DNA from: Candidatus Omnitrophota bacterium
GTDB taxonomy: Bacteria > Omnitrophota > Omnitrophia > Omnitrophales > JACROU01
DNA length: 64,000 nt
Assembly: GCA_029261035.1 (NCBI GenBank)
Contig: JAJDCD010000008.1
Span: forward strand, 364,480 to 428,479
Reading direction: 5' to 3'
The number at the start of each line of letters is the position of its first letter. Within the stretch, counting starts at the first letter, position 1. This document shows, piece after piece, positions 10,914 to 64,000 of the stretch. The position numbers were made by a program, and so were the translations under genes. The notes beneath the pieces were generated by a model. The model ran no database searches, was not told where the DNA came from, and was given only the letters and a program-made list of their open reading frames with translations.

Positions 10914-10968
10914 CCGTTCGACTACGGTCTCTTAAATAAAATAATGTCGAGAGAGCGTAGTCGAACGG
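10914..10968. repeat. 13-bp perfect inverted repeat CCGTTCGACTACG / CGTAGTCGAACGG with inner TCTC/GAGA extension (candidate oriT or recombinase site)
   Basis: Read directly; sits in an intergenic region next to the transfer genes with no flanking T-tract. Confidence 0.5.
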
Positions 10969-41345: not shown

Positions 41346-41382
41346 ACGTTATCTCCTTTTTCTCAAGTCTTTATGAATAAAT

Positions 41383-42372
41383 TTAATGACCGTGGCCATC
41401 GCCAAACGATGCCTTCTCTCGCTCTGACTTGAGATTAAAACTCCCATGCACAACAACGTGTTCTCCTTCACTCAGGCCCGATTTGACTTCAACTGCGTCA
41501 CCAACGGCATGCCCGAGCACAACCTCTCTGATTTCGATTTCATCCTTTTCTTGAGGAACAAAAACAACATTTTCGTTATTAACTAATTGGATCGCTGATT
41601 TCGGCACAATAAGACTTTCCCGATCTGTGTGATAAATCAGTGCCCCAGAAATCGACATCCCGAGTTTTAAGAGATGCTCCGAGTTATCCACATCCACGCG
41701 AACCTTAATGGATTTTGATTCGTCATCAATTTCAGGTGAAATGAAAACAACTTTTCCATGAAATAGAGTCTCGGGATAAGCAATAGACATCACTTCGACT
41801 TGCTGACCAATTTTTACAAATCTCAAGTCTCTCTCATAGATATCAATAGTGGCTCGCAAAGTATCCAGATTTACAATGCTCACCAGGGATTTTAAGCGGT
41901 CAACTTTATCGCCTTTCTTAACATAGATTGAAATGATTGTGCCATGCTCAGCTGACTTAATACTTTCAGTAACTCCATCTGGTTGCCTAATGGTTAAAAG
42001 ATCAGACCCCTCGTCAACGATATCTCCCAGGGCAATATGAACGGTTTCAACAACTCCTCCATTTGCATAAGTAATATGTGAATACTGCTCCGTGTCCTTC
42101 GCAACTTTTCCATAGACTTTCAAACGGTCCCCGAAGGTTTTCTTTTGCACTTTGATTGTCTGAAGGCCAATCATCTCGCGTGCTTCTGCATCAAGCTCCA
42201 TACTATTTTCTTCATGATGTTCACCTTCTTCTCCGTGATCATCATGCTTTTGCTCACTGACCTCCTCACGCTTCGAGTGATCGTGATCATGTTCCTCTTC
42301 TGCGAATCCAAGACCAGAAGCTGACAACATCACTAAAACTGAAAACAATAAAACCAAATAACGCTTATCCAT
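41383..42372 (-). CDS. czcB: RND periplasmic adaptor with His-rich N-terminus
   Basis: Start set at MDKRY (GAAGGAGA SD). EEHDHDHSK...HDDHGEEGEHH stretch. Confidence 0.75.
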   Translation of the reverse strand: MDKRYLVLLFSVLVMLSASGLGFAEEEHDHDHSKREEVSEQKHDDHGEEGEHHEENSMELDAEAREMIGLQTIKVQKKTFGDRLKVYGKVAKDTEQYSHITYANGGVVETVHIALGDIVDEGSDLLTIRQPDGVTESIKSAEHGTIISIYVKKGDKVDRLKSLVSIVNLDTLRATIDIYERDLRFVKIGQQVEVMSIAYPETLFHGKVVFISPEIDDESKSIKVRVDVDNSEHLLKLGMSISGALIYHTDRESLIVPKSAIQLVNNENVVFVPQEKDEIEIREVVLGHAVGDAVEVKSGLSEGEHVVVHGSFNLKSEREKASFGDGHGH

Positions 42373-43648
42373 TTTTTTCTCCTTCGCCTTGTCCCTCGTG
42401 AGGAATAGGGGTAGATTGAATAGCTCTTTCAAGCGCAGCCACTCTTGTCATGTAATTTCTTAAAGCCTCGAGGTAAGCAACTCTTGTTTGCTTAATCGTT
42501 TTCATACTGTCTAAGTAGGAGATGAATGTCATCTGACCCTCTTGATACTGCGTTGTAATTTGTCTTAATAGCTCGTTGGATTCCTCAAGCGTTTTTTGTT
42601 GAATCTGGACTTGCTTATCACCGAGCTCTGCTTCGAGAAACGCTGTATAGACATCAAGACCGACTTCATTTTTAAAAGCTTCCAACTTTATCTCTTGAAT
42701 TTTCTTTTCAGCTTTCGCCTCTTTCACTTCACCGAGATTAAAACCCCAAAGCGGATAAGACGCCTCGATCAGGAGAGCTGTATCATTTTCGTATTCCACT
42801 GTTGTTCGCTCAACGCCAACCGCCATCTCAGGCAAAAACACTTTTAAAAGTGCTCGCCACAATCCTTTCTTCTTGGTACGAAGTTTAATCTCTTCCTGCT
42901 TCAAATCTGCACGTTGTAGGAGAGCATCTGCTTTAATCAATGCGTATTTATAATTCAACGCTTCATAACTTAACTCATCAGAAAGAACAAACGCCTCTTC
43001 AGCAACACGACCCAATGCTAGGTTGAATTCTCCTTGTGATACTTTCAGGTCTTTCTCTGCGATCAATAAGTTATTTTCAGCACTCGAGAGCTCGATACGC
43101 GCTCTTATAACATCGCTTTTAAGCCCCTTACCCGATTGATATCTTGTTTCAACTTTGGTAAAGAAATTCCTCGTCACATTCAAATTATCTTCAGCGACCT
43201 CCAAGGCCTGTTCTTGCGCAAGAATCGTAGAATAGAGCTCAATAATGTTTTCACGCACTTCAGCCCATGCAAGTTCAATATCTTTTTTAGCAATTCGAAC
43301 TCCATCTTTCGCCATGCTTGCGCCTAAGAATCTGGTTCCCAAAGCATCAAGCGGCTGTTTAATTGAGAAAGAATCGACGGAGCCCTTCCTTGAGCCTTCT
43401 GATTTTTTAAGCCCACCAACCTCAAACCCAACTTCAGGATTTGGTAGAGCTTCGCTTTGAATCCATCTTCCTTTGGAAGCCTTCACTTCTTCACGGGCCA
43501 CAATCATTCGGGGGTTATTCTGGTAAGCTAACCTTAAGGCTCCCTCCAATGAGACAGAGGACGCCCCAGCACTTTCAGCTCTTGCAATGAAAGCATTTGA
43601 ACAAATACAGATAAATAGAAACAAATATATATTTAATTTTCTTGCCAT
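42365..43648 (-). CDS. czcC: TolC-family outer-membrane efflux protein
   Basis: Signal peptide and TolC repeats. Confidence 0.8.
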   Translation of the reverse strand: MARKLNIYLFLFICICSNAFIARAESAGASSVSLEGALRLAYQNNPRMIVAREEVKASKGRWIQSEALPNPEVGFEVGGLKKSEGSRKGSVDSFSIKQPLDALGTRFLGASMAKDGVRIAKKDIELAWAEVRENIIELYSTILAQEQALEVAEDNLNVTRNFFTKVETRYQSGKGLKSDVIRARIELSSAENNLLIAEKDLKVSQGEFNLALGRVAEEAFVLSDELSYEALNYKYALIKADALLQRADLKQEEIKLRTKKKGLWRALLKVFLPEMAVGVERTTVEYENDTALLIEASYPLWGFNLGEVKEAKAEKKIQEIKLEAFKNEVGLDVYTAFLEAELGDKQVQIQQKTLEESNELLRQITTQYQEGQMTFISYLDSMKTIKQTRVAYLEALRNYMTRVAALERAIQSTPIPHEGQGEGEKNG

Positions 43649-47446: not shown

Positions 47447-49741
47447 TTATCCCCAATTAACCTTCACACCCCACGTTGCCGTGAGAGGTCGTCCGGGACG
47501 AGGACCATGCGGATGCCGCGAGACAATGTATTCTTGGTCGGTAATATTATAAACATTCATTGTCAGTGTTGCCCAATCCGTGAGAGCGTACTCCGCCGCA
47601 AAATCAAAAACCAAATAGCTGTCTGTTTGTCCAAAACGTGCATCCCGCACTCCTGTGGTAGGATTGATTTGATCCGTCGTATTGCTGGCTGAAGTAAACG
47701 TTTGAGGGACAAAATTCCCATTTACGTAGACTCCGAATTTGCCGTATTCAAACCCTGTTCCGAAAGAAAGCAGATACTCTGGCACATAAGGGACTTCATT
47801 GCCTTCTCTTGCCCCTGAGAAAATGGATTCCTGATCTGCCGATGCGGATGAAGAATCAAACTTCGCATTCGTATAAGTAAACGAAAGATAACTCGGAAGA
47901 TTAAAAGGTTTATCCATATGCTTTGCCGGATCATATTCGAGTAAAAACTCAATACCTTGAGAATTCACCTCACCGGCATTGACACTCATTCCGCTCCCGG
48001 CGCCGCCTATGCTGTCATCAACCAGCAAATCATCAAAATCCGTGTAAAACCAGACGATTTCAGAATGGAGTGCGCGTTCAGCATCATTCAGCCTTAATCC
48101 GACTTCGTAGGCATCGCTTGTCTCTTCCCGCAAGTTAGAAGCTCCTGTCGCAGCACTCGGACTCGGTACAGAAAAACCCCTATGCCAGCCAGCAAAACCA
48201 GAAACTTTATCTGTCAGACGGTAGTTGGCTGAAACTCCCGGAGCTAAGATGTCATAATTAACTTTTCCGGTGGCTCCCGTGGCTTTATTTTTGAACTCGG
48301 GCTGAATCCATTCCCAACGCAGGCCTCCAGCAAGGGTCAGCCGATCCCACGTCATTTGATCATTAATATAGAAAGCATGAGCTTCGGTGTGTTGCCGGTT
48401 AAAGCCACCGGACCCGGGTGCTCCAAGGGCTTCATCTATGATTCGGCCCTCTCCATCCTGCGTGTAAGTAATATCCCGCTGGTAACGCTCTACGCGGTCT
48501 TGATGATAGCGGTATCCAAAATCCATGCTGTGTTCTGTATCCATAATATCAAACTTAAAATTCAGAACATTATCAAGACCGGCACCGTAGTAGTAGCGCC
48601 GATTCTCACGAAAACGAAAACTCCCGGCTGCATCTCCTTTTAAAACCGCTAGGTGTGTTGGCGACTCTAACGCTTCGGAAATACTTAGTCGGTCTCCGGT
48701 CCCAGGAATTGAAGCGGCATCAATGCGGTCATTGACCTTCCTCCAATTACGATAAAAATAGTTGAAGTAACCGGTTGAAGTAATGTTCAATCTATCGGGA
48801 ATCAACTCCGCATAGTAGCGCAGGTAGGAACGAACCTGATTGGATTCAATGCCATCAAAACGGGAAGCGGCATAGCGGCGGTAAGGATTGTTCCGGAAAT
48901 CCTCCGTATTAAGCCCAATATATGTTTCATTAGCATCTCTGTAAGAGTTTCCTACTTTTAATTCAAGGCGCTGGTACATGTCCGTATCAGGCTCAAAAAA
49001 GAATTTCAACATAGTATCGTAAAGTTCATATCCTGTTGCATCCGGGTCTTTGATACCGGGTTTTTCATCGATGAACTTGAATCCATCCTGAAAACGCTGG
49101 TAGGATTCAGCAAGCCAGCCAAATTTTCCGATACCTGTTTCAACAGTATCTCCCACATAAATATGGGACCGCACTTCCGCGTCTTCACGAAAATCTGTAC
49201 CGCTCGTAAGATTGACATACGCTTTCAAATCATCAGGGATGGGTGTCGAGAGATAATTAATGACCCCTCCCGTTGTATGCGGGCCATATTTGATCTGGCT
49301 CGACCCTTTCAGCACCTCGATACCACTCATACGTCCCGTGGTAGGAGAATAATAAGCCGAAGGATCAGAATAAGGTGCCGGAGCCGTCAGTACCCCATCT
49401 TCCATAATTGTGACCTTACCGCTACGTCCGGGATCAACACCTCTCAAACTGATGTTAGGAAATAAACCGTATCCATCCTCTTCCCGCACATAAACTCCGG
49501 GAACTTTGCGCACAACCCGATTGATATCATCGTAATTAAATTGATGGATATCTTCGGAATCCAGGTAAGCACCCGATCCACCCAAATTCACCACATTTTC
49601 CTTGGCACCAATCACCGTGACTCCTTGGTAACTTTTTTTTGATGTGTCTTTTTCATCTACTGCTGTTTCCTCGGCCCGAAGACCGGGCACGCAAAGAATC
49701 ATCAACGACATCATCCCTACCCATACGCGAATCATTTTCAT
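47447..49741 (-). CDS. TonB-dependent outer-membrane receptor
   Basis: Signal peptide starting MKMIRV (AAGGAG SD at 7 nt); plug and barrel motifs. Confidence 0.8.
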   Translation of the reverse strand: MKMIRVWVGMMSLMILCVPGLRAEETAVDEKDTSKKSYQGVTVIGAKENVVNLGGSGAYLDSEDIHQFNYDDINRVVRKVPGVYVREEDGYGLFPNISLRGVDPGRSGKVTIMEDGVLTAPAPYSDPSAYYSPTTGRMSGIEVLKGSSQIKYGPHTTGGVINYLSTPIPDDLKAYVNLTSGTDFREDAEVRSHIYVGDTVETGIGKFGWLAESYQRFQDGFKFIDEKPGIKDPDATGYELYDTMLKFFFEPDTDMYQRLELKVGNSYRDANETYIGLNTEDFRNNPYRRYAASRFDGIESNQVRSYLRYYAELIPDRLNITSTGYFNYFYRNWRKVNDRIDAASIPGTGDRLSISEALESPTHLAVLKGDAAGSFRFRENRRYYYGAGLDNVLNFKFDIMDTEHSMDFGYRYHQDRVERYQRDITYTQDGEGRIIDEALGAPGSGGFNRQHTEAHAFYINDQMTWDRLTLAGGLRWEWIQPEFKNKATGATGKVNYDILAPGVSANYRLTDKVSGFAGWHRGFSVPSPSAATGASNLREETSDAYEVGLRLNDAERALHSEIVWFYTDFDDLLVDDSIGGAGSGMSVNAGEVNSQGIEFLLEYDPAKHMDKPFNLPSYLSFTYTNAKFDSSSASADQESIFSGAREGNEVPYVPEYLLSFGTGFEYGKFGVYVNGNFVPQTFTSASNTTDQINPTTGVRDARFGQTDSYLVFDFAAEYALTDWATLTMNVYNITDQEYIVSRHPHGPRPGRPLTATWGVKVNWG

Positions 49742-50236
49742 TTTTCTGCTCCTTCGTGTCATCATTTGAAGAATCCGGCCGCCCAAGGGAGGAAGGACGA
49801 CCGGATTCATTCATAATATTCGCTGGGTACGAGATGAAGGATTTCATCTTTGCCTGGCTACAGTCTTATTTATTTAAAATCAATTTGCCTGCTTTTGTAA
49901 TTTGCAAACGATAGTGTCGATCACTATGCCGGATATAAATTTCTCTTTCATCACCAAATAGATCATTTGAACAAAACACCCGGCAATTCTTGCTACCAGC
50001 ATTTTGTTCAGAACGACATTCAATCATGTTTTCAACTGAGAGGAGACCTTTGTCTTTTTTCATATCAAATCCATGTGAGGACGAGCTTCCGGTCACTACG
50101 TGAACTCTTCCTTTAATTAAACTGTTTTTCTGCCGACATCAACCGGCGCATCGTCATAACCTGAAGACGTTGATGAAACCATCAAAAGGCAATCACCCTC
50201 CCAAATGAATTTTCTTCGGCGTCCGTCCATCACTCT

Positions 50237-51429: not shown

Positions 51430-51705
51430 CTAAGCCGCTTCTCCTATACCAGCTTTCACCAAGGATTCTCGGTCCAATTTTCCTCGTTTGCAGCATTCAG
51501 CGATCTTCCCATCTACCACGACCACCGGGACAGAAGTAATCCCATATGCTTTTGTCTTTTCGATGCACTCTTTCGACTCGCAAGGCTCGGAGATATCGTA
51601 AACCGTAACCTCACAGTTCGAACACGCAAGCTCCTTAACCAAGCTCACCGTTTCTTTGCAGAGATAACATCCACTTGTAAACACCTCAACTTTTCTTTTT
51701 CCCAT
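51430..51705 (-). CDS. small thioredoxin-fold protein
   Basis: 91 aa; CxxC (GCYLC) plus additional Cys pairs. Confidence 0.55.
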   Translation of the reverse strand: MGKRKVEVFTSGCYLCKETVSLVKELACSNCEVTVYDISEPCESKECIEKTKAYGITSVPVVVVDGKIAECCKRGKLDRESLVKAGIGEAA

Positions 51706-52201
51706 GACGCTTTTCTCCTTTTTTTAACTTTGCATTTCTTTCAATTTGAGGACACACCGTAAAACGTTGCTTTTTAGCAACCTCCATCGGAATCCAGGAT
51801 TTCATGAGTGCCCGCAGACTTTTCTTCATAGCTTGAAGCTCTTTAATTTTTCCTTCCAGCTCATCAAGCTTTTTCGTTAGCACCTTGTTTACGTGCCCGC
51901 AACACTTCTCAAGTCCTCTTTCACTTTCTTGCATGATCCGCTTGATCTCGGCAAGAGACAGGCCAAAAGACTGAGCTTTCCGGATAAAGAGAATACAATC
52001 AATGGATTCCTGCGGATATTTACGAAATCCACCCTCTGAACGCAAAGGCCGCTTTAACAGACCCTCCTTTTCGTAATATCGAATTGTATCAATTGAAGCG
52101 CCTGCTTTTCTGGACACTTCCCCGATCTGTTTAAGCTCCATACTTTGAATCATTTTTACCTCCAATGACATAATACACTCTAGAGTATACTCCAGAGTCA
52201 A
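51686..52201 (-). CDS. MerR-family metal-responsive regulator (start probably at the internal MIQSMELK or MELK Met)
   Basis: LKQIGEVSRKAGASIDTIRYYEKEGLL; C-terminal CC...C. Confidence 0.7.
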   Translation of the reverse strand: MTLEYTLECIMSLEVKMIQSMELKQIGEVSRKAGASIDTIRYYEKEGLLKRPLRSEGGFRKYPQESIDCILFIRKAQSFGLSLAEIKRIMQESERGLEKCCGHVNKVLTKKLDELEGKIKELQAMKKSLRALMKSWIPMEVAKKQRFTVCPQIERNAKLKKGEKRHGKKKS

Positions 52202-52561: not shown

Positions 52562-53353
52562 CTAATTTGAAGCGATCTTGTTCAAGTCTATACCTGCGAA
52601 CAGCAACACACACTGTGAGTTATTCGTAAGACGCGTCATGGTTTGAGTCGCAGATTCGCCATATAACTCAGCTAGTTCTGTTATTGTATGAACAACATCT
52701 CTCGGTTCTGAATTTCGAGAGCCTATTTTAGCAAATGGAGCATCTGTTTCTGTCAGTATTCGGTCTTTTGGAATACTCTGAACCAGAGCACGCCCGCGAT
52801 CATGTTTGAGCATCGCGGAGTTTACTGAAAAAAAGCAACCTGCATCAGCTGCGCGTCTTGCTTCTGAGAGCGATCCCGAAAACCAGTGCAGTATGCATAA
52901 CACTTTAGCGGGATCGCTACGCTCCTCTATCATAGCAATCACGTCACGTGCTGCGCGTCGACTATGAATAGTCAAAACTCGTCCGCCGTTCCTTTGCGAA
53001 GCTTCAAGTACACGGGAAAACGCTTTTTTCTGCATTTCATAACTAGCGCTGTGCTGAGGACTACCGTCTAACCCGACTTCGCCAACAAGACGGCAATCGC
53101 CAATTAACTGCTCAAGCATCACTATCTCCGCATGCCTTTTACCGACAAGCTCCGGGTGTAAACCAACCGCTGCATGTACATATGGACTAGCTTTCATCCA
53201 TGAATGATTCTGAGCCCAAGCTTTTGGCGTAGTCGTCACAGCAACAACAGCTATACGATCTCTTTCACATTGCTCTATAACAGCAACGGGATCGGCGTGC
53301 AAATCAACGTGACAATGAAAGTCAAAACCTACTATCCCCTTATTTGTGCTCAC
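52562..53353 (-). CDS. qatD: TatD-family metal-dependent nuclease, QatD
   Basis: DFHCHVDLH...EVGLDG...TDAPF TatD motifs; 4-nt overlap with qatC. Confidence 0.75.
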   Translation of the reverse strand: MSTNKGIVGFDFHCHVDLHADPVAVIEQCERDRIAVVAVTTTPKAWAQNHSWMKASPYVHAAVGLHPELVGKRHAEIVMLEQLIGDCRLVGEVGLDGSPQHSASYEMQKKAFSRVLEASQRNGGRVLTIHSRRAARDVIAMIEERSDPAKVLCILHWFSGSLSEARRAADAGCFFSVNSAMLKHDRGRALVQSIPKDRILTETDAPFAKIGSRNSEPRDVVHTITELAELYGESATQTMTRLTNNSQCVLLFAGIDLNKIASN

Positions 53354-54714
53354 GGTATTTGTATCACCACGTCATCAACAATTTTTGCAACCTCAGCAAT
53401 ACCTCTTCTAAAAACGGCAGAGTATTCCAATATCTCCTCCGGCGAATAATCATCAAATGAGCCAGTTTTATGAATCAAAATGTCTGACAGTGCAGGCTTC
53501 CGCGAAAGTCGATGGCTCATCATTTGAAATGCTCTCACGTCTGTTGCTTCTTTCTGTTTCGCATTAAGCGCTCGAACAGTCAAATCAGGTATGGAATAAT
53601 TTGTAGAATCCACCCCAAACGCTGCATGAATTGAAGCTCGACGAATCAAGCATGGCGTGCAGTAGCCGCAGTGCCCTGGCGGACGCCCTTTCCACCGACC
53701 TTTGGAAAAGGAGGAACAAGATATAGTGATGTCTGCATACTTTTTTAGAAAGGCCACATTTGTACACGCAGAAAGCATTTCACCTTTGGTTTTGAAGCGA
53801 TAGGGATTCAAAAGTTTCGCTCCTAGCCCCAAGTTATCCAAAAGTTTTTGCCAGAGAGCCATATAAAAAGGATGCGTTGTACGCGTGCTCCATGCACCAA
53901 GTCTCAGTGGATCAAGTGGTACGTTTAAAGAGATTAGACCATTCTCTGGGACATAAAGTGGTGTGATGCCGCCGTCCATCGAACTCGCAGCTAAAACCGC
54001 CAGCGCAAAGAATATGAAAGATCGTCCTCTCGTTGTTGTCTCCGTACCTAGGCCAGTCATGTCATTTTTATCAAAGCTCACATTGGCTCGGACATGGTGA
54101 GAGTAAAAATCCCCATATTCTTCCTCTAATTTGTCGGCACAAATAACCTGACTCTTAGTACTTACATCACGGTAATGGCTAACGAAAACGGTTTTCTTAC
54201 TAGCTGCAAGCAGGTCAATTGCTCCGACAAAGCTGTCGAGTCCCCCCGAAAAAAGACAGACGCTATCAAATGTAGTTTTCACAAGTTCTGGGGTTCTCTT
54301 GATCAGCGATTCCAGACCCTTCTGCCTGGGTCTAAAAAAAATCCGCCAGTGATCACCGGTCAGGAATTTCAACGTCCTCTCTATTAGTTTAACATTTGAG
54401 TCCCAGTCATCGGGTTTTGCAACTGGAATATACAGATCAATCTCGCGTGTCCAACTATCCTGAGAATCAGATACTCGTGAGATTTTGGTATCAGCAGCTG
54501 CGACTGTTGCTGCGAGAATAGCCAAATCAATCGCACTCTCCGGCGGGTACATCCCGCGCTGTGTGAGTTGGTCGAGCATCTGGCCAATGCCATGATTCAA
54601 GCGACGGTCATCATCGACAAAGTGAAGCACTGTAGTCAGTGAAGTTCTATCCTTCACTTTCACTTTTGTTTTGTCGGATGCATTAAGCCGCACCACGATG
54701 CTATGACGTTTCAT
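53350..54714 (-). CDS. qatC: QueC-like PP-loop ATPase, QatC
   Basis: LFSGGLDSF PP-loop; C-terminal CGYCTPCLIR zinc motif; ATGA start/stop overlap with qatB. Confidence 0.8.
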   Translation of the reverse strand: MKRHSIVVRLNASDKTKVKVKDRTSLTTVLHFVDDDRRLNHGIGQMLDQLTQRGMYPPESAIDLAILAATVAAADTKISRVSDSQDSWTREIDLYIPVAKPDDWDSNVKLIERTLKFLTGDHWRIFFRPRQKGLESLIKRTPELVKTTFDSVCLFSGGLDSFVGAIDLLAASKKTVFVSHYRDVSTKSQVICADKLEEEYGDFYSHHVRANVSFDKNDMTGLGTETTTRGRSFIFFALAVLAASSMDGGITPLYVPENGLISLNVPLDPLRLGAWSTRTTHPFYMALWQKLLDNLGLGAKLLNPYRFKTKGEMLSACTNVAFLKKYADITISCSSFSKGRWKGRPPGHCGYCTPCLIRRASIHAAFGVDSTNYSIPDLTVRALNAKQKEATDVRAFQMMSHRLSRKPALSDILIHKTGSFDDYSPEEILEYSAVFRRGIAEVAKIVDDVVIQIP

Positions 54715-55601
54715 CCTTCTCGATCTCCCAATTGCTGCAAAAGATCCCACGCTTCAAGGTAGGTCTTGTCAACGATCTCCCTGATGTCCTCATCGGACAT
54801 ATTGGATAGTTTTTCAAAATCACTCGTAAAAGAGTCACGCACAGTTCTTTGGATATAATCCCTAAACTGCCTATCGAATCCATCGATATCATCTAGTCCT
54901 TCGGAAAACCGGAATCCGTTTATACCGATTTCTTGATATAATCGTGACTCAATCGTATGCCCAAGAAAGCTAAGGAAAATCTCCTGGGTTGCTTCATGTG
55001 ATAATGCATCAAAATCATCAATGCCAAACTGATCCAACTCGGCAATCGTTTCCAGCCATGCGTCTCGTGCGATAGCTTCGTCGACTGATCCACCATCACG
55101 ACAAATAACCTCGGTAAAACCAATGAATACGTCTTGGATTTTTCGACCTGATAACTTTTGAAGGTTAAGACGTTGTAATGTCGCCTGTATGCCATCGCGT
55201 TGAATGCCTCGGAACACACCAAGTGCGTTACTCGCCGCTGAACGTGATGCACCCATGCGTCGTACTGCATTCCGGCTGCCGCCTGTCCCAGAACGAACAT
55301 AATCACGTACAGCTCTTCTAAGTGATCGCACATTACTGCCGCCAGAACCAACGAACCGTGAAAAATTAGTCCGCGCACCTCTAAAACGTTCTGCCTGGGG
55401 AGGAGGTATTGCGGGAAACTCTTTTCCATTATCTTCAGAGTCTGGTTGCGCGGCGGGGTTACCATTGCCTCCAATGTCATCTTGCTGCTGCATCACAAGG
55501 GCGTCACTACACGGCAACAAACCAAGAGGTTCATTCTCTAGCCATGTTGGTACGAGAGGCGTCCCTGAACTAGAACCTGATGAAGTTCCTGATGTACCCA
55601 T
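54711..55601 (-). CDS. qatB: QatB-like protein (Gly/Ser/Arg-rich N-terminus)
   Basis: Position and size within the qatABCD order. Confidence 0.55.
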   Translation of the reverse strand: MGTSGTSSGSSSGTPLVPTWLENEPLGLLPCSDALVMQQQDDIGGNGNPAAQPDSEDNGKEFPAIPPPQAERFRGARTNFSRFVGSGGSNVRSLRRAVRDYVRSGTGGSRNAVRRMGASRSAASNALGVFRGIQRDGIQATLQRLNLQKLSGRKIQDVFIGFTEVICRDGGSVDEAIARDAWLETIAELDQFGIDDFDALSHEATQEIFLSFLGHTIESRLYQEIGINGFRFSEGLDDIDGFDRQFRDYIQRTVRDSFTSDFEKLSNMSDEDIREIVDKTYLEAWDLLQQLGDREG

Positions 55602-55604
55602 ATA

Positions 55605-57542
55605 TTAATAAGCCCCTTGATCCAGTGCTTTAAGCGCTGCTGGTGCACCTTGTTTTAACAAGGAGTTATCCTCTTGAGTTTCCCATCCTCGTATCACCGA
55701 CTTCAATTCATCACGAGCCTTCGACTCCGTAATAGCCTCGTTCCAACCTTTCAATATCCAAAGCCCTACTTTTTTAGGATCAAGGCTGCCCAATAATTTC
55801 ACAACTTCGCTTTGAAATTGATGGTGATGTTTAGCCACTATGGTGAGACCGTTTATACCGGGCGGTGGGTTGTTAAGACTACTCACACTAAGAACTCGCT
55901 CTCGCAATACACTAAAAATGGTATTCGCATCACCTTCAATCAATGCTTTAACCTCCGATTCCGCCGTTCTAACTTCTAACTGCGACCCACAAAGTCTTTT
56001 AATTAATGCCTCCAAAGCTCCCGACCCGCTCTCTCCACTAAGCATACGCTTGTCGCGCACTACGAATACATATGGTCGCAAATCTTCATTTCCGAGCTCG
56101 GGCTTAATTTGGAGCCAACGTTTTAGCCAATCACGTTCAAGCCATTTATCAGCACCCGCTTGTTGAATTTCTTTCTCTGATGTCATCACTTTCTTATCTC
56201 TACTTTTCTTCTTTTCATCCGATTGAGCCCCCTTACCATAACCTTCTAAGTAGACGACATCTCTAGCCTTCCCGCTATCAGAAGTCATAGCTTGTGCGGC
56301 AACGCGCTCATAAAAATCAGGTTGGAAACGTTCAGCGAGCATAAGCTTAGCTAACACAGGCTGATTAATTAGCCCCTCAAACCCTCTCGCTTTCGCAATC
56401 ATTTGACGTACAATCAATGCGTTAAGAAAACGCTTTACCTGCCGCGGGTTTCCTTTCGTGCCCTCCGCAAGCATTGGGGCAATTTGTTGCGCCAAAACAA
56501 ATGCTAAATCCAAGCCTTCCTTCTTCGCATTATCCACCTCTTGAACATCAGTTTGCGATAGGCTGGCTCCAAGCCAGGGTTTCTTCAAGCCCTCTTTCGC
56601 TTTCATCAGAAGCCTATTAAAACCATCATGATCTTCCCCAACTAGACTCTGTACCAACAAAAGAGTCACATAAGTGCGAGTTTCCTGAGCACCAAGCATC
56701 GGTATCGTGAACGGAATCTGGACAAGCTTTTCCAAATAATTTCGTGCATATGGTAAAGGCCCAGACGCAACTGGCAAATCTGGAAAATGCTGTCGTACTG
56801 CATATTCGATCATTGCCTCATCAGCAGCAATAATAAATGCTGTTTTGGGCACAAATAAAAATAACCGAATAGCTTCCAGTGTCTCAATTGCTGTTGTGGG
56901 AAGGCATCGATCGAGATCATCAATCAACACAACAAGTTGATCAACCTTTGCCTCCTGAAGCAACTCTTGAAAGTCTTTTCGAAACTCATGGATGGTATCC
57001 GGCAAATTCTCACCATCCTCAGACGGCTTTAGAAAGCCCGCTACTTCTTCGACACGCGCTGGGATCTCACTAGGATTGATACTTGCAGCATTTTGAGCCA
57101 GATCCTTCAGCGTACTGAGAGCAGTTCCAATTTGATCTGGAGAGGGTAAACCCGTGATAATATTAAAAGCCACGCCACTACCACGTTTGGCGACTTTCAG
57201 CCAATTCACGCGCTTAATCAGTTTATTGGCAAACTCTTTAACCTTACCTACCGTTGAACGCTGTCGACACAGCTCAGTAATCGTCGCTTCAATCAAAACA
57301 GTCTTCGCATCATCAAACCCTTCAAATGTCCAACCATTAAACCACAGCACGGCAACGTTTTTATCCGAGGACAAATCCTTCTCAATCATTTTGAGAATAC
57401 TAGATTTGCCAGCTCCCCAATCACCATGGATACCAATCGTCAATGGACGACTACGATTATGTTTTAATGTTTCGATAATCGTTTGCGAAATAGCCTCACA
57501 ATTAAGAAAATCAACTTCTGTCTCGTTGTCTGGAATTAGCAT
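55605..57542 (-). CDS. qatA: KAP-family P-loop NTPase, QatA
   Basis: GIHGDWGAGKSSIL Walker A; 645 aa. Confidence 0.8.
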   Translation of the reverse strand: MLIPDNETEVDFLNCEAISQTIIETLKHNRSRPLTIGIHGDWGAGKSSILKMIEKDLSSDKNVAVLWFNGWTFEGFDDAKTVLIEATITELCRQRSTVGKVKEFANKLIKRVNWLKVAKRGSGVAFNIITGLPSPDQIGTALSTLKDLAQNAASINPSEIPARVEEVAGFLKPSEDGENLPDTIHEFRKDFQELLQEAKVDQLVVLIDDLDRCLPTTAIETLEAIRLFLFVPKTAFIIAADEAMIEYAVRQHFPDLPVASGPLPYARNYLEKLVQIPFTIPMLGAQETRTYVTLLLVQSLVGEDHDGFNRLLMKAKEGLKKPWLGASLSQTDVQEVDNAKKEGLDLAFVLAQQIAPMLAEGTKGNPRQVKRFLNALIVRQMIAKARGFEGLINQPVLAKLMLAERFQPDFYERVAAQAMTSDSGKARDVVYLEGYGKGAQSDEKKKSRDKKVMTSEKEIQQAGADKWLERDWLKRWLQIKPELGNEDLRPYVFVVRDKRMLSGESGSGALEALIKRLCGSQLEVRTAESEVKALIEGDANTIFSVLRERVLSVSSLNNPPPGINGLTIVAKHHHQFQSEVVKLLGSLDPKKVGLWILKGWNEAITESKARDELKSVIRGWETQEDNSLLKQGAPAALKALDQGAY

Positions 57543-57679: not shown

Positions 57680-58228
57680 TTAGGGGCTATTTGGCATTTC
57701 AAGCTTGTCCAATATTTCACGAAATCTAGCTAGCTGTAACCTCTCATCACCCAGTTTTACAATTTCAAGTAATCGACGGAGATGAAAATGTTTGACAATT
57801 TGAGGAAAGGGATTTTTTGTGAGAACTTCACGTATCCCCTGAGGAAGATTTAGGATTCGCAGAAGCTTAGCGATATAGGACCAATCCTCCCCTGTCATCT
57901 CAGCTAATTGGCGGATACTTGAAGCACCTGTTGACTCCATCAATCGCTTGAAATATTCAGCTTTTTTTATGGGATTATTCTCAAGGCGCTTTTGAAAAAT
58001 TCTGTGTTTTTGAAGATCTTTTTGGGTGGGAATCAAGCCGGTTTTAAGGCTATTTGGTCGGTCCTCAAGAACAAAAACTCTTTTACCTGACTTGTAAATG
58101 CTATAGAATGATTCAAAATAATCAAACGAACGGGAAATCGCTACTTGGGAAATTAGTTCGTCGAGCGTCCGAGTGGGGACCCCATATAAAAAAAGCCATC
58201 CAAAACGGATGGCTTTTTTTATGCCCAT
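57680..58228 (-). CDS. HTH protein with ParB/KorB-like C-terminal region (N-terminus uncertain, possibly truncated)
   Basis: SIRQLAEMTGEDWSYIAKLLRILNLPQGIREVL. The listed ATG start translates the terminator hairpin, so the true 5' end is unclear. Confidence 0.35.
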   Translation of the reverse strand: MGIKKAIRFGWLFLYGVPTRTLDELISQVAISRSFDYFESFYSIYKSGKRVFVLEDRPNSLKTGLIPTQKDLQKHRIFQKRLENNPIKKAEYFKRLMESTGASSIRQLAEMTGEDWSYIAKLLRILNLPQGIREVLTKNPFPQIVKHFHLRRLLEIVKLGDERLQLARFREILDKLEMPNSP

Positions 58229-59060
58229 GGTGAGCGACGGGACTTGAAAAGAGGCCCGACCAGTTTATATAAGATGAAATAAAAATAGAGCTGACTCAAT
58301 GTCAGGTCTCTTTTCATTGAATTCCTTAGGAGGGCCGAATGGCCGACCTGGAGTAAGTACTTACGACCAGTAAGTAACGAACGTAAGGCGCCAAGTCCCT
58401 CGACTGAGAAACCTTAGCAATTCCAAACCAATTCAACATTCAACAACTGACCCCCAAAATGCAAACTCAAATGTTGGATTGTGTTCATATCGTGTTGATG
58501 AACACTTAAGGAATTATGCTGCTCGTGCTATGGCTAAATCCGCTTCATGGGATTGAACTAGGGCTAATAAAGCTTCCCCTACCGCAGAGAAGAATCCATC
58601 TACTTTCCTTAATCCGTATTTCGTCAGGAAGGCTAATGGGTTCTCTGATTGAGTGTAGAGTAAAGCTACTCCTAAAAGCCCATTCTCTTCGTTTGGATAT
58701 CTAAACTTATTGTCTCCGACTAATGTGAAGTCTTCTGCTGGATCAATGGTTCGAGATAAATGAAGATTATGTTGGGCTTTACGTATTCCCTTTGCAGCCT
58801 CTCTCGCATTTTGTGGAGTGAAGTGTATGTTTGGTAGATTAAGCAATGGTTGTTTATCATACGAACCTGCATTAGTAACCACCACTTGTAACTGCTTTGG
58901 ATTCCTCGCTGCTAGTTTGAAGATTTCATCCAGTTGAGCACGAGAGAAGTTGTCTATGTCACGTCCGATGAAAACATTTATGGATTCTTTTAGGTTGTCT
59001 AGGACAGAAACATTTACAGAACCCAAACTCTTCGCATCGGCTTCATCTTCTGTTCCCAAT
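58179..59060 (-). repeat. ~0.9-kb duplicated block, copy A (C-terminal domain coding region + 3' UTR + terminator)
   Basis: Aligns with 62130..62960 at roughly 85-95% nt identity. Confidence 0.7.
58187..58220. terminator. bidirectional intrinsic terminator (A7-GCCATCC-aaaac-GGATGGC-T7)
   Basis: Read directly; 3' of the WD40 gene. Confidence 0.65.
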
Positions 59061-61861
59061 GATGCCCCACTCACTCTCTCTGGAAACACTTCATTAGGGA
59101 ATAAACCTTGTTCGTATTCTGTGAAAGCAGGATCAATGTTGGCGTACAAGACGCGAACGGTTCCGTCGTTGCCTACAGTCACAAACTTTTTTTGATCAGG
59201 AGTTATAACAACATCTTGAATTCCTCCACTATGTCCTTCTAGTCGTTGGCGCTCTTCTCCTGTCTGGATATCCCACATCCGTAGAGTTCCATCTCGATAC
59301 CCTGTTACAATCTGTTGCCCATCAGGAGTGATGGTTAGAACATCATCAACAAATCCACCATCCTCTTCAATATCACGATGCCCTCTAAACATCAGAAGCC
59401 GTTCCCCTGTATTTATATCCCAAACTCGAACAATTCCATCTTCACTGCTGGTTACAACCTTCTTGCTATCCGGGGTAATCGTAATGACCGTTACACTATC
59501 TGCTTCTTGCATAGGATTTAGATCAAAACCAGGAATTCGTTGTTGGGTTTCTGTATCCCACACTTCTAAACGTCGGCCTTCATCCATAAAATTAAGGCTC
59601 GTCAAAGCCATTCGTTTGTTATCAGGGCTTAAAGCAACAAAGGCTGCAGACGGGATTGCTTCTGATTCAATCATATAAAGACTCTCTTGGGTTTTCCAAT
59701 CCAAAACTTGCACTCTTGTTACCCATTCTCCTACGAGATCATTAGGAGCTGGTTCACTAATGACAAGATAACGTATAAACAAGCTCCCATCCCGACTAAA
59801 AGGTGTACTTCGATAAAATATCTCATGCGGTGTAGATGGTGATACTGTTAATGATTCAAAAGGTGTCCAAAACAAAGTGTTAATTCCTTGATTCTGGGAT
59901 ATTAAAACTTTATTTCCATCAGGAGTAAAATAAGCAGCATCAGCATCAGAAGCGGATGCTGTTCTTTTTCCCGTTAACATGTCCCAAATAGTAACCCTTT
60001 GATCTAACCCTATAGTCACAATTTGACTTCCATCTGGATGAATTGAAACTCTGTCTAGTGGACTTCCATAATTTGCTACTACCCGACTCCTTAACCTTTC
60101 TCCATCCCAACTGTAAAGACTATCTATCACCCTATTTAAGCTCGGCAAATCCTCTCTTTCGAGAACTGCTTTCACACCACCCGCTCTTCCCACTGCTGCT
60201 AATAATGCCTTTAAATCTTCCTCATCTTCATGCGCTCCATATTGCTTCAGTGCTGCTTTAACTTTGTCTCTATCTGTCCCCAAACTCTTTGCATCGACTT
60301 CATCTTCTTCTGTCACAACTCCACCTTGAGCTGTTGTCTCCCATCCTTCTTTCAACCGATCCAGCTGTGTCAAAACTCGTTCTAGGCCAATAGCATCAAT
60401 GCTCTCTAAAACCTCTAAAACCTCTGGGGTGTGTTTGTGGGGAACGTAATATTCTTCTGTTGTACCATTAGTTAATTTAAATACTTTATCAAGTTTTCGA
60501 TAAAACTCCTCTTTTGCATCCTCACTTAGCTCTTCATATTTTCTAAAAACATCATCAATCCTATCTAGCTGCTCTTTTACTCCTTGCTTAGAATCAATCC
60601 CTAAAGAAAGTATTATCGGAACAAAAAGAGATGCTTCTGCTTCTTCAAAAAATCTCATGCTCCAATTTCTTACAAACCTCTGATAGTCTTCATCATTATT
60701 TTCGGCTACCATCTCCAATGTAAGATCTAATTTCTCCCAAAAAGCTATAAAATGCCCTCCCCAATCCTCACCACCACCCCCCTCTAGAACAAGGTTTTCA
60801 ATAAAGGCTATAAAAAAATTAAGATTAAAAGTAGAAGGAGCTAACACTCCAAATCTCACAGCCCTAGTTAAAGAAATAAGAGGATCGTAATGACTACCGC
60901 CAACCTGATTTACTCGACTAGCGTAATAAAAAAACATTGTTTCCATCATCTCTCCATCTATCACTCCTGCTTGAACAGCTTTCCCTAAACTTAGAAGAGG
61001 ATCGAAATAAATATAAAATTCATGGTTAGCATCAGCATTTACAATACTACGGTCTAATAACTTACCTAACACTGAAGGGTCTGCTTCTCTATCTCTAACT
61101 GCTTCTATTAACCTTCTCAGAGATTCAAAATCTTCATCGCTCCCCCCCGTCGTGAAACCATGCGTAATTTTTAAAAAGCGCTCGACATCAAGTAAACTTT
61201 TGTCAGCACCACCCTCTTTAACTGCCTGGGCAACAATCACTAAAAAACCAGAGATCTTCTCTAAATATCTACCCTCCTCCCTCCACTTTACATAACTAGT
61301 ATTCGTTTCTGATACAGCTTTTAACAACGCAACAACGTCTTCTGTGGTCTGACCCGTCACATCCTTCAATTCCATTAATAATTCAAATGCTTCAAAAGCA
61401 TTTGCTGTTTCACTTAAAATCTGAAGTACTTCTTTCTGGCTAATATTATACGACTCGCTAATAAATTTCCTCATTTCACCTGCCACTGCATCCTTAAAGA
61501 AATCACCCAATTCTTCATTACGAAGTAATAGAGTTAATGATTGTATTATTTGCGCATTAGTACGGCCTGCCCTTATAAGTTTTTGTATATATTCAAAAAT
61601 CAACGCAGTGTCTTTCCCAGACTTCATTTGTTTTTCCAAATCTACCAAATCCCTGTCTGTCCCCAAACTCTTAGCATCTGCGTAATCTGGCTGCTCAGCA
61701 TCCCTACCTTCTAATAATGCTTCTTCGTAAATAGATTGTGGTCTTGCTGCATACAAAGGAGTGGCATATTCAAAGATATTAAAAAGTGTGAAGAAAATGG
61801 ACAGTAAAATAGTAGTGTTTTTGTGGAATATAGGTAATCCTGGTTTAGACTGACACTTCAT
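58514..61861 (-). CDS. large secreted multi-domain protein: signal peptide, helical domain, WD40 beta-propeller, conserved ~175-aa C-terminal domain of unknown function
   Basis: WD40 repeats (e.g. GHSGGIQDVV..., DGTLRMWD, DGIVRVWD). N-terminal hydrophobic segment. C-terminal domain shared with the 62415.. gene. Confidence 0.8.
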   Translation of the reverse strand: MKCQSKPGLPIFHKNTTILLSIFFTLFNIFEYATPLYAARPQSIYEEALLEGRDAEQPDYADAKSLGTDRDLVDLEKQMKSGKDTALIFEYIQKLIRAGRTNAQIIQSLTLLLRNEELGDFFKDAVAGEMRKFISESYNISQKEVLQILSETANAFEAFELLMELKDVTGQTTEDVVALLKAVSETNTSYVKWREEGRYLEKISGFLVIVAQAVKEGGADKSLLDVERFLKITHGFTTGGSDEDFESLRRLIEAVRDREADPSVLGKLLDRSIVNADANHEFYIYFDPLLSLGKAVQAGVIDGEMMETMFFYYASRVNQVGGSHYDPLISLTRAVRFGVLAPSTFNLNFFIAFIENLVLEGGGGEDWGGHFIAFWEKLDLTLEMVAENNDEDYQRFVRNWSMRFFEEAEASLFVPIILSLGIDSKQGVKEQLDRIDDVFRKYEELSEDAKEEFYRKLDKVFKLTNGTTEEYYVPHKHTPEVLEVLESIDAIGLERVLTQLDRLKEGWETTAQGGVVTEEDEVDAKSLGTDRDKVKAALKQYGAHEDEEDLKALLAAVGRAGGVKAVLEREDLPSLNRVIDSLYSWDGERLRSRVVANYGSPLDRVSIHPDGSQIVTIGLDQRVTIWDMLTGKRTASASDADAAYFTPDGNKVLISQNQGINTLFWTPFESLTVSPSTPHEIFYRSTPFSRDGSLFIRYLVISEPAPNDLVGEWVTRVQVLDWKTQESLYMIESEAIPSAAFVALSPDNKRMALTSLNFMDEGRRLEVWDTETQQRIPGFDLNPMQEADSVTVITITPDSKKVVTSSEDGIVRVWDINTGERLLMFRGHRDIEEDGGFVDDVLTITPDGQQIVTGYRDGTLRMWDIQTGEERQRLEGHSGGIQDVVITPDQKKFVTVGNDGTVRVLYANIDPAFTEYEQGLFPNEVFPERVSGASLGTEDEADAKSLGSVNVSVLDNLKESINVFIGRDIDNFSRAQLDEIFKLAARNPKQLQVVVTNAGSYDKQPLLNLPNIHFTPQNAREAAKGIRKAQHNLHLSRTIDPAEDFTLVGDNKFRYPNEENGLLGVALLYTQSENPLAFLTKYGLRKVDGFFSAVGEALLALVQSHEADLAIARAA

Positions 61862-62129
61862 TTAGACAAAGTCCCCTTTGGGTAAAGGATACCATATTAA
61901 ATTATATTGTAGAAATACCCAAAAATTACCCGCCGCGTGAGAGTCTGCCTAGTATACCCACTACCCCCGGGGTACCCCCGAAAGCAAGTTTGATAAGAAT
62001 TGTAAGGTCTGAAATAAAAGGGCTTATTAGGTCTATTAGGAGGCTAAAACGGGTATGTTCATAGGGATACTTAAGGAAAATTGTTTTAAGCTACGTTGAG
62101 GAAATAGGTTCTAAGTTCATCTAGACAGT

Positions 62130-62960
62130 GACCCCATATAAAAAAAGCCATCCAAAACGGATGGCTATTTTTATGCCCATGGTAAGCGACGGGACTTGAA
62201 AAGAACGACGCCAAGTTTATCACGCTGAAATAAATAAGGAGCTGACTCAATGTCAGGTCTTTATTTATTGAAGTCATTACAAGGAGTGAATGGCCGACCT
62301 GGAGTAAGTACTTGCGACCAGCAAGTAACGAACGTAAGGCGCCAAGTCCTCGACTAGAGAAGCTTTAGCACTCTTAAATTACACCCAGCAAACTATTAAA
62401 CTTCTAATTAAAAACTACGCCGCTCGTGCTATAGCTAAATCTGCTTCGTGGGATTGAACTAAGGCTAACAAAGCCTCCCCTACTGCTGAGAAGAATCCAT
62501 CTACTTTTCTTAATCCATACTTCGTTAGGAAGGCAATCTGATTATCTGATTGAGTGTAGAGCAAAGCTACTCCTAAGAGGCCATTCTCTTCGTCTGGATA
62601 TCTAAACTTGTTGTCTCCAACTAATGTGAAGTCATCTGAGGGATTTATTGTCTTGGACAGATGAAGGTTATGCTGAGCTTTCCGTATTCCTTTTGCTGCT
62701 TCTTTCGCACTCCGTGGGGTGAAGTGTATATTTGGCAGATTCAGTAATGGATGTTTATCATAGGATGGCGCATTAGTAACCACCACTTGTAACTGCTTTG
62801 GATTCCTTGCTGCTAGTTTGAAGATTTCATCTAGTTGAGCTTGTGAGAAATTATTGATGTCACCACCATGAACAAATATATTTGTGGATTGTTTTAATCT
62901 ATCTAAGACAGAAACATCTACAGCTCCCAAACTCTGTGCATCTACTTCTTCTATTGGAAC
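62130..62960 (-). repeat. ~0.9-kb duplicated block, copy B
   Basis: See copy A; includes terminator hairpin 62146..62164. Confidence 0.7.
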
Positions 62961-63986
62961 CTCTGATGCCCCTAAACTTGCCGCCACAATTACTTGGCCA
63001 TCTGTCACACTTCCTTGCCAACGAGCAGTTCCATCATCAAAAACAACCTCTAAGTCTTTCCTTACCCCATCCCGAAGTTTTCCTGCATTATTTGGATCTT
63101 GAAATAACTCTTTTATTTCTTCTTCAGTTACAGACGTTCTTCTTAGAATTAAGCTTCTTAATTCCTTCAACTCTGACAATTCCACTAATTCACGAATATC
63201 CTCATTTCCTGTTAAATCAAGTACTTTTAATCCCTTTATCTGAACTAGTTGTGGAATAGCTAAATAACTTTCTAATTCTGCATCTTTAGCGATTAGCTCT
63301 TCTAATTTTGGAAGACGGGATAATCTACCATACTCTGTCATGTATTTATTTCCACTCAAATTAAGTTTCCTCAAACTTTTAATTTCTATAAGTTCATCCA
63401 GATTATCATTAGTGGCATCAAATGTAAGTGATATATTTAACTCTTCTAATTTTGAAAGTTTCGATAAACCTATAAAGGAGGGGCTATAAAAACCGAGATC
63501 TTCATCCATGTCCATGTCCACATCATCAATATAAAGATTCTCTGTCTGCATATAAAGCACTTCTTCTAAAGAGAGTTTTTTCAAACTTTTAATGTTCCCA
63601 ATATCATCGATAGACGGCTTTCCAAGTGTAGAATTGTTTAAGTCTAAAGTTTCTAAACCTGGAATAGTAGATAGAGCTCCTAATTCAGTAAAGCTACTCA
63701 ATTCTAAAGTGAGTTTTTTCAAGCCCTTATTTTCTGCTATTTGAGCAACAACTGTAGGATCACTTATATTTTCTCCTATCAACTCCTCCAATTGAATTGG
63801 TGCTAAAGAACCAATGTCAAATGTTGGGTTTCCCACATATAAAGTACCCTTTACACCAAATGTCTTTCCCTCTATTTCTATCTTATACATTGCTCCGGAA
63901 GTAAGTTCATCTACTTGATTCACCACCCTTTTTTCATGTTCTTCAAAAAAAGAAGTCGCAAAAGGAGAAATATCTTCGTTGCTCAC
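62415..63986 (-). CDS. leucine-rich-repeat protein with the same conserved C-terminal domain (5' end probably beyond the window)
   Basis: LRR units (LKKLTLELSSF, LETLDLNNS, LKKLSLEE, LEELNISL, LRKLNLSGN, LKVLDLTGN). C-terminal 180 aa ~85% identical to the WD40 protein. No in-frame stop upstream before the window end. Confidence 0.75.
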   Translation of the reverse strand: MSNEDISPFATSFFEEHEKRVVNQVDELTSGAMYKIEIEGKTFGVKGTLYVGNPTFDIGSLAPIQLEELIGENISDPTVVAQIAENKGLKKLTLELSSFTELGALSTIPGLETLDLNNSTLGKPSIDDIGNIKSLKKLSLEEVLYMQTENLYIDDVDMDMDEDLGFYSPSFIGLSKLSKLEELNISLTFDATNDNLDELIEIKSLRKLNLSGNKYMTEYGRLSRLPKLEELIAKDAELESYLAIPQLVQIKGLKVLDLTGNEDIRELVELSELKELRSLILRRTSVTEEEIKELFQDPNNAGKLRDGVRKDLEVVFDDGTARWQGSVTDGQVIVAASLGASEVPIEEVDAQSLGAVDVSVLDRLKQSTNIFVHGGDINNFSQAQLDEIFKLAARNPKQLQVVVTNAPSYDKHPLLNLPNIHFTPRSAKEAAKGIRKAQHNLHLSKTINPSDDFTLVGDNKFRYPDEENGLLGVALLYTQSDNQIAFLTKYGLRKVDGFFSAVGEALLALVQSHEADLAIARAA

Positions 63987-64000
63987 AAATCTAATGAAAG

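Follow-up and report, generated by a model that had tools for sequence, protein, structure and literature searches.

The 64,000-nucleotide stretch analysed here (hereafter the window) belongs to the Candidatus Omnitrophota bacterium assembly GCA_029261035.1 (contig JAJDCD010000008.1, positions 364,480 to 428,479 of the forward strand) and shows, at its end, two adjacent genes of a protein family in which interchangeable modules are lined up from a constant signal peptide at one end to a constant C-terminal domain at the other, in what looks like a novel means of presenting or delivering protein cargo. Gene 1 encodes a WD40 protein (P0002), and gene 2 encodes its neighbour bearing leucine-rich repeats (LRR; P0001); the constant C-terminal domain is called here the C-domain. 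Three elements recur in the family: a leader at the N-terminus, a short junction motif, [AG]-x-S-L-G, between the modules, and the C-domain. The family is undescribed, restricted to one lineage and probably derived from Omnitrophota. The coordinates of all features are given in Table 1.

An exhaustive profile search against 1.84 billion representative sequences, with the two C-terminal regions of the window as query, shows the C-domain in 33 cluster representatives of 103-6479 amino acids (aa), 24 of them at E <= 1e-10, and the match lies at the extreme C-terminus in 33 of 33. The first-pass annotation of the window had proposed a search for further paralogues, and had taken a domain confined to these two genes, as a recent duplication, as the outcome that would speak against its idea; the domain recurs among these 33 representatives, with at least three paralogues on the window contig (the third is P0008) and at least nine in the JGI metagenome Ga0315338, on contigs of 2.17 Mb and 0.46 Mb, three of them in tandem. 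The 1115-aa protein of the window and P0002 are identical, and P0001 (1317 aa) is encoded on the same NCBI contig of 465,966 bp, its last 527 residues being the open reading frame (ORF) that the window cuts. P0003 and P0005 are on an NCBI contig of 630,564 bp and P0004 is on one of 387,951 bp. The TypA protein from the 2.17-Mb contig of Ga0315338 shows 84-73% identity to metagenome-assembled genomes of Candidatus Omnitrophota, which dominate its best matches among the species-representative genomes. The window and the Ga0315338 genome share the leader, a 122-nt upstream block (about 83% identical) and a 23-nt element (22 of 23 bases), and the window proteins give only distant matches, of about 25-33% identity, to the loci fetched from relatives. 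No relatives were found in the species-representative genomes scanned with C-domain patterns, and the C-domain has no match in the plasmid collection, where the sole DNA match is qatA. In the related loci examined, family genes lie in housekeeping surroundings, with neither conserved neighbours nor adjacent secretion genes.

The C-domain shows no match in sequence searches of Pfam, NCBIfam and the PDB, and structure comparison gives only a generic Rossmann/HAD-like similarity, in agreement with the first-pass annotation, which could not assign it to any family; it would be a new domain family. With two sequences AlphaFold reaches a predicted local distance difference test (pLDDT) of 36, and an alignment of 29 sequences was needed for a confident model (pLDDT 88.9, predicted template modelling score 0.84). 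In this model the domain, of about 170 aa, shows alternating short parallel strands and helices in an alpha/beta three-layer arrangement, ending in a long C-terminal helix. Four positions are invariant (E44, S101, F118 and G126), five are nearly so (S38, Q41, L132, L133 and the last residue), and Asn or Asp is conserved at strand ends. Conserved Cys or His was not found in the family alignment, Cys being absent from the domain altogether. A HAD hydrolase was considered and rejected, since the catalytic motifs (DxD and others) are not conserved. All 33 proteins stop right after -[AS]-[AV], the ending being AA in 28 of them, which indicates that the free C-terminus is itself conserved.

The N-terminus of full-length members is a conserved leader of about 40 aa, with the consensus M-K-x-x-S-K...H-K-x-x-A-I-F-x-S-I-F-F-x-L-F-N-I-F-x-Y-A-x-P-x-Y-A↓A-R (the arrow marks the predicted cleavage point), whose end reads ...LFNIFEYATPxYA↓AR. 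Inspection of 15 aligned leaders shows the features of a Sec (type I) signal peptide: an n-region with K, R or H, a core AIFxSIFFTLFNIF and a P-x-Y-A↓A-R site, with small residues and the pair [YF]A preceding the predicted cleavage point. In the 167 kb formed by the window and the related loci, a hidden Markov model of the leader matches only C-domain proteins, so that leader and C-domain are, as judged from these loci, coupled. Most members, both window proteins included, show at most one strongly hydrophobic segment, which is N-terminal; the three longest (P0020, P0028 and P0030) show three to five. Because a basic n-region precedes the hydrophobic core and an acidic flank follows it, the main bulk of the protein would lie outside the cytoplasm. 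Cysteine accounts for 44 of the 54,678 residues of the family (0.08%) versus 0.95% for the remaining ORFs of the window, a 12-fold depletion: in P0001 and P0002 the only Cys is residue 3, which lies within the leader, so that their mature forms would have none, and P0028 has none in 6479 aa. Such scarcity would be typical of proteins that have to pass the periplasm or a channel in the outer membrane with no disulfide formed. The 1115-aa product and its hydrophobic N-terminal leader, noted in the first-pass annotation, are confirmed, and of the two functions proposed there that of a secreted effector fits the predicted signal peptide and the cysteine depletion.

The junction motif [AG]-x-S-L-G occurs 2.64 times per 1000 aa in family genes versus 0.045 in neighbouring ORFs (44.5 thousand aa), an enrichment of about 59-fold, and the shorter SLG occurs 142 times in the 54.7 thousand aa of the family, about 10-fold above compositional expectation. 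In front of the full motif there is usually an acidic stretch with a hydrophobic pair (...EEWLRxxVDAKSLG or ...PEDEIFRVEGKSLG), and the junction residues ahead of the C-domain are disordered in the AlphaFold model (residues 1-11, pLDDT below 50). When 24 proteins were cut at the motif and the segments clustered at 50% or more coverage, the module families obtained were A (the C-domain), B (the leader), C (WD40, 8 copies), D (helical, 5 copies) and E to N, which recur in differing order and number and are always bracketed by B and A. Full-length members contain 1-13 passenger modules: WD40, LRR and HEAT repeats, several helix-turn-helix (HTH) and sigma-70 region 4 domains, and modules of enzyme type, such as a methyltransferase, inositol-monophosphatase-like (IMPase) modules, an acyltransferase, an alpha/beta-hydrolase and a kinase. 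P0020 also shows a caspase-like HG...DSC motif, a HATPase and a Nudix-like region. The general idea that variable repeat modules are set on a constant end therefore holds, and extends to enzyme modules.

In the window genes and the related loci L001-L005, the junction codons differ from those elsewhere in the same genes: Ser is encoded by AGT in 73% versus 28%, and Leu by TTR in 94% versus 55%. Since AGY and TCN serine codons are not synonymously interconvertible, this bias is probably a trace of the common descent of all junctions; a role of the junction at the DNA level, such as recombination, may be the alternative. A function of AGT-TTG-GGG as a -1 frameshift slippery site was ruled out, half of the junctions using TTA. 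In the four most divergent members (P0026, P0028, P0030 and P0032) the leader is followed first by I-P-x-E-L-G-[TS]-[VI]-[ED]-E, in place of A-x-S-L-G, and no enrichment of SLG is seen; two of the four exceed 6300 aa. A junction or processing signal of another kind may serve this subfamily.

The leader, the WD40 module, the helical module and the C-domain occur in both window genes, in permuted order; P0001 has the LRR in addition. According to Pfam and BLASTP, the order in P0001 is leader, WD40 (about residues 59-505), helical module, LRR (Pfam matches at about 63111-63725 of the window) and C-domain. In gene 1 the WD40 matches of Pfam, at residues 595-910, lie in a module homologous to residues 59-505 of P0001 (34% identity), and the module of about 450 aa between the first two junctions shows 33-38% identity to P0001 in BLASTP. 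No Pfam or PDB sequence match was found for residues 68-520 of gene 1, and "helical" is a tentative label. P0002 looks like the leader-WD40 layout of P0001 into which a 450-aa module has been set, flanked on either side by a copy of DAKSLGTDRD, as recombination at a junction would be expected to leave it. The first-pass annotation had seen WD40 in one gene exchanged for LRR in the other; both kinds of repeat are present where it placed them, and the exchange is an artefact of the window edge, which cuts gene 2, as full-length P0001 has WD40 and LRR.

The C-terminal regions of both genes are identical at 155 of 191 residues (81%, E = 4e-100 in BLASTP), far beyond chance, so that the common domain stands, at an identity of 81-82% and not the previously estimated value of about 85%. 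Over the last 60 residues the two are identical at 57 positions, and not at all 60 as had been noted, the uninterrupted identical run being the last 39 aa. Fourteen of these last 39 codons differ synonymously, as do 54 of the 155 conserved codons overall (about 35%). Because of this synonymous divergence beneath identical residues, the copies are old and kept by purifying selection, which acts on the terminal helix and tail, and are not the product of recent duplication or gene conversion; the two genes are, from their codons, old tandem paralogues.

Conserved DNA is also found outside the coding regions of the family genes. Upstream of gene 1, a block of 122 nt is about 83% identical to positions 5403-5524 and 10820-10941 of the related locus L003, which lie upstream of two family genes with C-domains of only some 58% protein identity. 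No Rfam match was found for this block, which suggests, by its conservation, a shared promoter or operator that would co-regulate family genes. Downstream, the duplicated DNA extends beyond the stop codon as a short variable stretch followed by a block of 243 nt, present after both genes. The two copies of this 3' block are 87% identical, above the identity at synonymous sites, and were duplicated with the C-domain; the block folds with a z-score of -6.0 versus shuffled controls, and the copies show several compensatory base-pair changes, such as A-U to G-C in the ACUUAC...GUAAGU hairpin. The block belongs to no Rfam family and gives only terminator-type matches below threshold, the window as a whole having no match at gathering thresholds. 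It could be a functional element of the 3' untranslated region (UTR) or a small RNA. Between gene 1 and its 3' block, a 23-nt element occurs as a single copy in the window, and it is also present in the related genome at positions 4127-4149, 4185-4207, 10548-10570 and 10591-10613 of locus L004, where the copies pair into hairpins, one of them directly behind a family gene's stop codon. This element may be an intergenic repeat similar to repetitive extragenic palindromic (REP) sequences.

The architecture strongly suggests that the proteins are exported and deliver cargo as modules. The reading that we favour, to which we give an even chance, is that these proteins would be Sec-exported, cysteine-free modular arrays, like beads on a string, with constant ends as sorting or anchoring handles and with junctions as linkers or cleavage sites. 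The leader would carry the unfolded chain through Sec, and the absence of cysteine would keep it free of disulfides in the periplasm. The C-domain and its free -AA tail would form a common handle for a shared machinery, analogous to a C-terminal sorting domain and not enzymatic, and a second step at this handle might be the passage of the outer membrane or docking on the cell surface. The C-domain would be a sorting or anchoring module, and not the payload, because it is always terminal, is joined to diverse passengers and has many paralogues. A PDZ-type module, belonging either to a secretion component or to a tail-specific protease, might recognise the free -AA tail, which is an idea only. 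The disordered junctions would be exposed linkers and, being both disordered and highly conserved, are good candidate processing sites, probably releasing the modules. The arrays would most likely be effectors aimed at another cell, host or prey, because many modules are of cytoplasmic type (HTH, methyltransferase, IMPase-like, kinase, acyltransferase, Nudix) or eukaryote-like scaffolds (WD40, LRR, HEAT), and this would be consistent with the host-dependent lifestyle proposed for Omnitrophota. Recombination, at the junctions as well as at the conserved ends of the genes, would be the source of new combinations. A bolder version, which we put forward only tentatively, is that leader, SLG junction and C-domain would together constitute an unrecognised sorting and multi-effector delivery system of Omnitrophota-type bacteria, in which Sec export would be followed by dedicated capture, by cleavage by a junction-specific protease and by the action of effectors, DNA-binding proteins and enzymes included, in the host or prey, the arrays being renewed by recombination at junctions and gene ends.

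Several points weigh against exported arrays with constant handles. The pocket-like conserved residues of the C-domain (E44, S101, F118 and G126) and its Rossmann/HAD-like fold make an enzymatic or ligand-binding role possible; secretion, protease or anchoring partners were not found beside any family gene, so that the handle is read from the architecture; SLG might be no more than a conserved linker passed on whenever a module was duplicated; and WD40, LRR and HEAT would also suit a surface adhesin that is not released. In the main alternative, rather unlikely in our judgement, the export is the same and no module is released: the proteins would be permanent adhesins or scaffolds of the cell surface or periplasm, the C-domain anchoring them non-covalently to an envelope polymer or protein in the manner of CWB2 or SLH domains, and SLG would form flexible linkers. 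Binding modules of the WD40, LRR and HEAT types are common in the family, the layout of signal peptide, variable part and constant alpha/beta C-domain mirrors that of anchored surface-protein families, the conserved residues are located along the sheet's C-terminal edge, the site of ligand binding in Rossmann-like domains, and no protease is associated with family genes in the loci examined. However, many of the modules are DNA-binding domains or enzymes of cytoplasmic type, with no obvious role on a surface, the conservation of the junctions, enriched about 59-fold, goes beyond the need of a plain linker, and neither Pfam/NCBIfam searches nor fold comparison found similarity to known anchoring domains.

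It is doubtful that the C-domain itself is instead what acts, either as an enzyme or as an effector that binds small molecules, in a new Rossmann/HAD-like family, with the variable modules targeting or regulating it. The invariant Ser and Glu, the conserved Asn or Asp at strand ends and the strong purifying selection agree with such a role, whereas the HAD catalytic motifs are not conserved, a constant end joined to diverse enzymatic passengers usually marks a trafficking module, and the -AA terminus, being always free, suggests that the tail is recognised.

The first-pass annotation had compared the two proteins to cytoplasmic immune sensors of the STAND/NLR type, in which the repeats would sense phage and the constant domain would be the effector. 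WD40 and LRR repeats are present, and the genes adjoin a QatABCD defence system, yet this idea is now very improbable: no P-loop NTPase (NACHT, NB-ARC or other STAND) or defence effector domain was found, Pfam giving only WD40 and LRR in P0001 and P0002; PADLOC gives only a weak match to a HEAT-ARM repeat; the proteins show a predicted N-terminal export signal and almost no cysteine; and family genes elsewhere lie among housekeeping genes, in non-defence neighbourhoods, Qat being on an island of separate GC content. A trivial recent tandem duplication of the 3' end of a gene, with no wider significance, accords with the adjacency of the genes and with duplicated DNA that includes the 3' UTR and terminator, and is hardly credible given the synonymous divergence of old, selected copies and a domain found in 33 representatives and in at least nine paralogues of another genome.

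Among known systems, the MARTX toxins show constant ends, a variable array of effectors and processing after Leu in unstructured linkers (PMC2900308). The family resembles them in the large proteins, here predicted to be secreted, with constant termini, in the variable array of unrelated modules that differs between strains or paralogues, and in the unstructured linkers with a conserved Leu between modules, cleavage at SLG being putative here. It differs from them in that RTX/haemolysin repeats (Pfam) and a type I secretion signal are absent, a Sec leader being present instead, in that it has no cysteine protease domain (C80, His/Cys dyad) and no Cys in the C-domain, and in that no similarity of sequence or fold was found. 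With the families of C-terminal sorting signals, such as the C-terminal domain (CTD) of the type IX secretion system (T9SS), PEP-CTERM, LPXTG-type signals and autotransporters, the family shares many paralogues, diverse passengers, a Sec leader and a terminal constant element. However, the modelled C-domain is alpha/beta and not an Ig-like beta-sandwich of about 80-100 aa as in the T9SS CTD, and Pfam/NCBIfam CTD models do not match it; it is not a beta-barrel translocator as in type V autotransporters, no autotransporter match being found in Pfam; and, with about 170 aa, a Rossmann-like fold and a terminal helix, it is not a tail of transmembrane segment plus motif as in PEP-CTERM or LPXTG-type proteins. 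Furthermore, the signal peptide is itself family-specific here, and cognate machinery was not found beside the genes. The Cwp proteins of Clostridioides difficile are likewise paralogous exported proteins with a constant alpha/beta domain and varied functional domains; the present family differs in the absence of a CWB2 match in Pfam, in its single C-terminal copy, in its junction-linked multi-module arrays and in its cysteine depletion. The eukaryote-like repeat effectors of the Legionella/Chlamydia type also combine WD40, LRR and HEAT with enzymatic modules, and the LRR of the family weakly resembles those of Xanthomonas XopAC and XopAE; such effectors usually have no Sec signal peptide, show signals of type III or type IV secretion and have no comparable folded constant domain at the C-terminus.

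Omnitrophota are described as predatory and as having giant proteins that are secreted or sit on the cell surface (10.1101/2023.11.21.568195; West-Roberts et al. 2023 preprint), and exported giant proteins also appear in a complete-genome preprint of 2026 (10.64898/2026.06.07.730766). As described in the relevant passages of these sources, the Archaeovorins and Dockerin-type giants, probably of the same phylum, resemble the present family in being very long, multi-domain and mostly exported or membrane-associated, with HEAT and enzyme domains and a proposed action on prey. These giants range from 10 to 150 thousand aa (genes of 25 kb or more) and show many transmembrane helices, SecA DEAD-like domains and conserved upstream neighbours similar to type II secretion systems, whereas the C-domain proteins range from 0.6 to 6.5 thousand aa, mostly with one N-terminal hydrophobic segment and with neither a SecA match nor conserved neighbours. 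Those passages make no mention of the leader, the SLG junction or the C-domain.

If the family consists of exported cargo arrays, its members would be concrete candidates for the molecules that mediate the interactions between Omnitrophota and their hosts. These bacteria are abundant, uncultivated and very small, and are thought to be predators or parasites of other microbes. The leader, the [AG]xSLG junction and the C-domain are three new signatures that can be searched in any metagenome; should the C-domain prove to be a sorting signal, the few recognised kinds of C-terminal sorting domain would be joined by a new one, and the standardised junctions are a natural example of modular protein assembly.

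Table 1. Position of the family genes, their parts and the neighbouring features in the window (position 1 is its first nucleotide).
Feature	Position	Strand	Description or basis
Family gene 1, 1115 aa	58514..61861	minus	Leader, junction, unassigned module, junction, WD40, double junction, C-domain
Family-specific leader of gene 1, residues 1-38	61748..61861	minus	Hydrophobic core ILLSIFFTLFNIF, basic n-region, predicted signal-peptidase site LYA↓AR
Junction 1 (...DYADAKSLGTDRD...), between leader and first module	61650..61688	minus	39-nt repeat family D2, motif search, segment clustering
Unassigned module of about 450 aa, residues about 68-520	60302..61649	minus	Weakly related to gene 2 residues 582-727
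Junction 2 (...EDEVDAKSLGTDRDKV...)	60267..60305	minus	D2-type repeat and motif searches
WD40 beta-propeller module with N-terminal helical lead-in	59075..60266	minus	Pfam; BLASTP; module family C
Double junction 3 (...SGASLGTEDEADAKSLG...)	59021..59074	minus	Homology of gene 1 and gene 2 starts here
C-domain of gene 1, about 168 aa	58514..59020	minus	Alpha/beta three-layer (modelled), long terminal helix, ...ARAA-stop
Family gene 2, 3' part only	62415..64000	minus	Runs off the window; listed start 63986; no in-frame stop upstream
Double junction before C-domain of gene 2 (...VAASLGASEVPIEEVDAQSLG...)	62925..62984	minus	Repeat, BLASTP and motif searches
C-domain of gene 2	62415..62924	minus	BLASTP and alignment with gene 1
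Upstream block, probably promoter and 5' UTR	61862..61983	minus	TATAAT, Shine-Dalgarno-like AAAGGGGA, GGGGGTACCCC palindrome
Structured 3' block downstream of gene 1	58178..58419	minus	Two hairpins and intrinsic terminator 58194-58214
Second copy of 3' block, downstream of gene 2	62130..62370	minus	Terminator 62146-62166
23-nt element GGGGTCAGTTGTTGAATGTTGAA, also given as GGGGTCAGTYGTTGAATGTTGAA	58432..58454	minus	Single window copy; 22/23 bases; 0/100 shuffles match
Island similar to an integrative and conjugative element (ICE) or mobilisable, with metal-resistance cargo	~300-58200	minus (all genes)	Family scans
ThiF and JAB pair	2322-3912	minus	
TIGR03299 / DUF932 phage/plasmid-like protein	5212-6189	minus	
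TraD-type coupling protein	7501-9336	minus	
MobC	9333-10139	minus	
Two P-type ATPases	14310-16529, 32385-34286	minus	
Two resistance-nodulation-division (RND) metal-efflux systems	18544-25853, 38241-43648	minus	With HMBD-containing membrane-fusion and outer-membrane proteins
TonB-dependent receptor	47447-49810	minus	
MerR/ZntR-type regulator	51686-52201	minus	
Complete QatABCD anti-phage system	52562-57542	minus	PADLOC E-values 1e-253 to 2e-91
QatA	55605-57542		KAP NTPase
QatB	54711-55601		
QatC	53350-54750		QueC-like
QatD	52562-53353		TatD-like

Almost all the rest of the window looks like an ICE-like or mobilisable island, in which the QatABCD system lies directly downstream of gene 1 and its qatA shows 69% DNA identity to a copy on a Roseibium plasmid. 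The GC content of the island is 0.425 versus 0.40 and 0.37 in the family genes and 0.37-0.40 in the related genome, and the adjacency of Qat to the family is probably incidental, because Qat sits on this island of different GC. A PRTRC system was considered and rejected, as the match of ThiF to the PRTRC model scores well under the cut-off. Between the Qat genes and gene 1, an ORF of 182 aa with a ParB-type HTH (57680-58228, minus strand) starts, as listed, at an ATG within the terminator hairpin that is present in two copies; behind the LRR gene the corresponding sequence runs into a stop after 19 codons, so that the true start of this ORF is probably further downstream.

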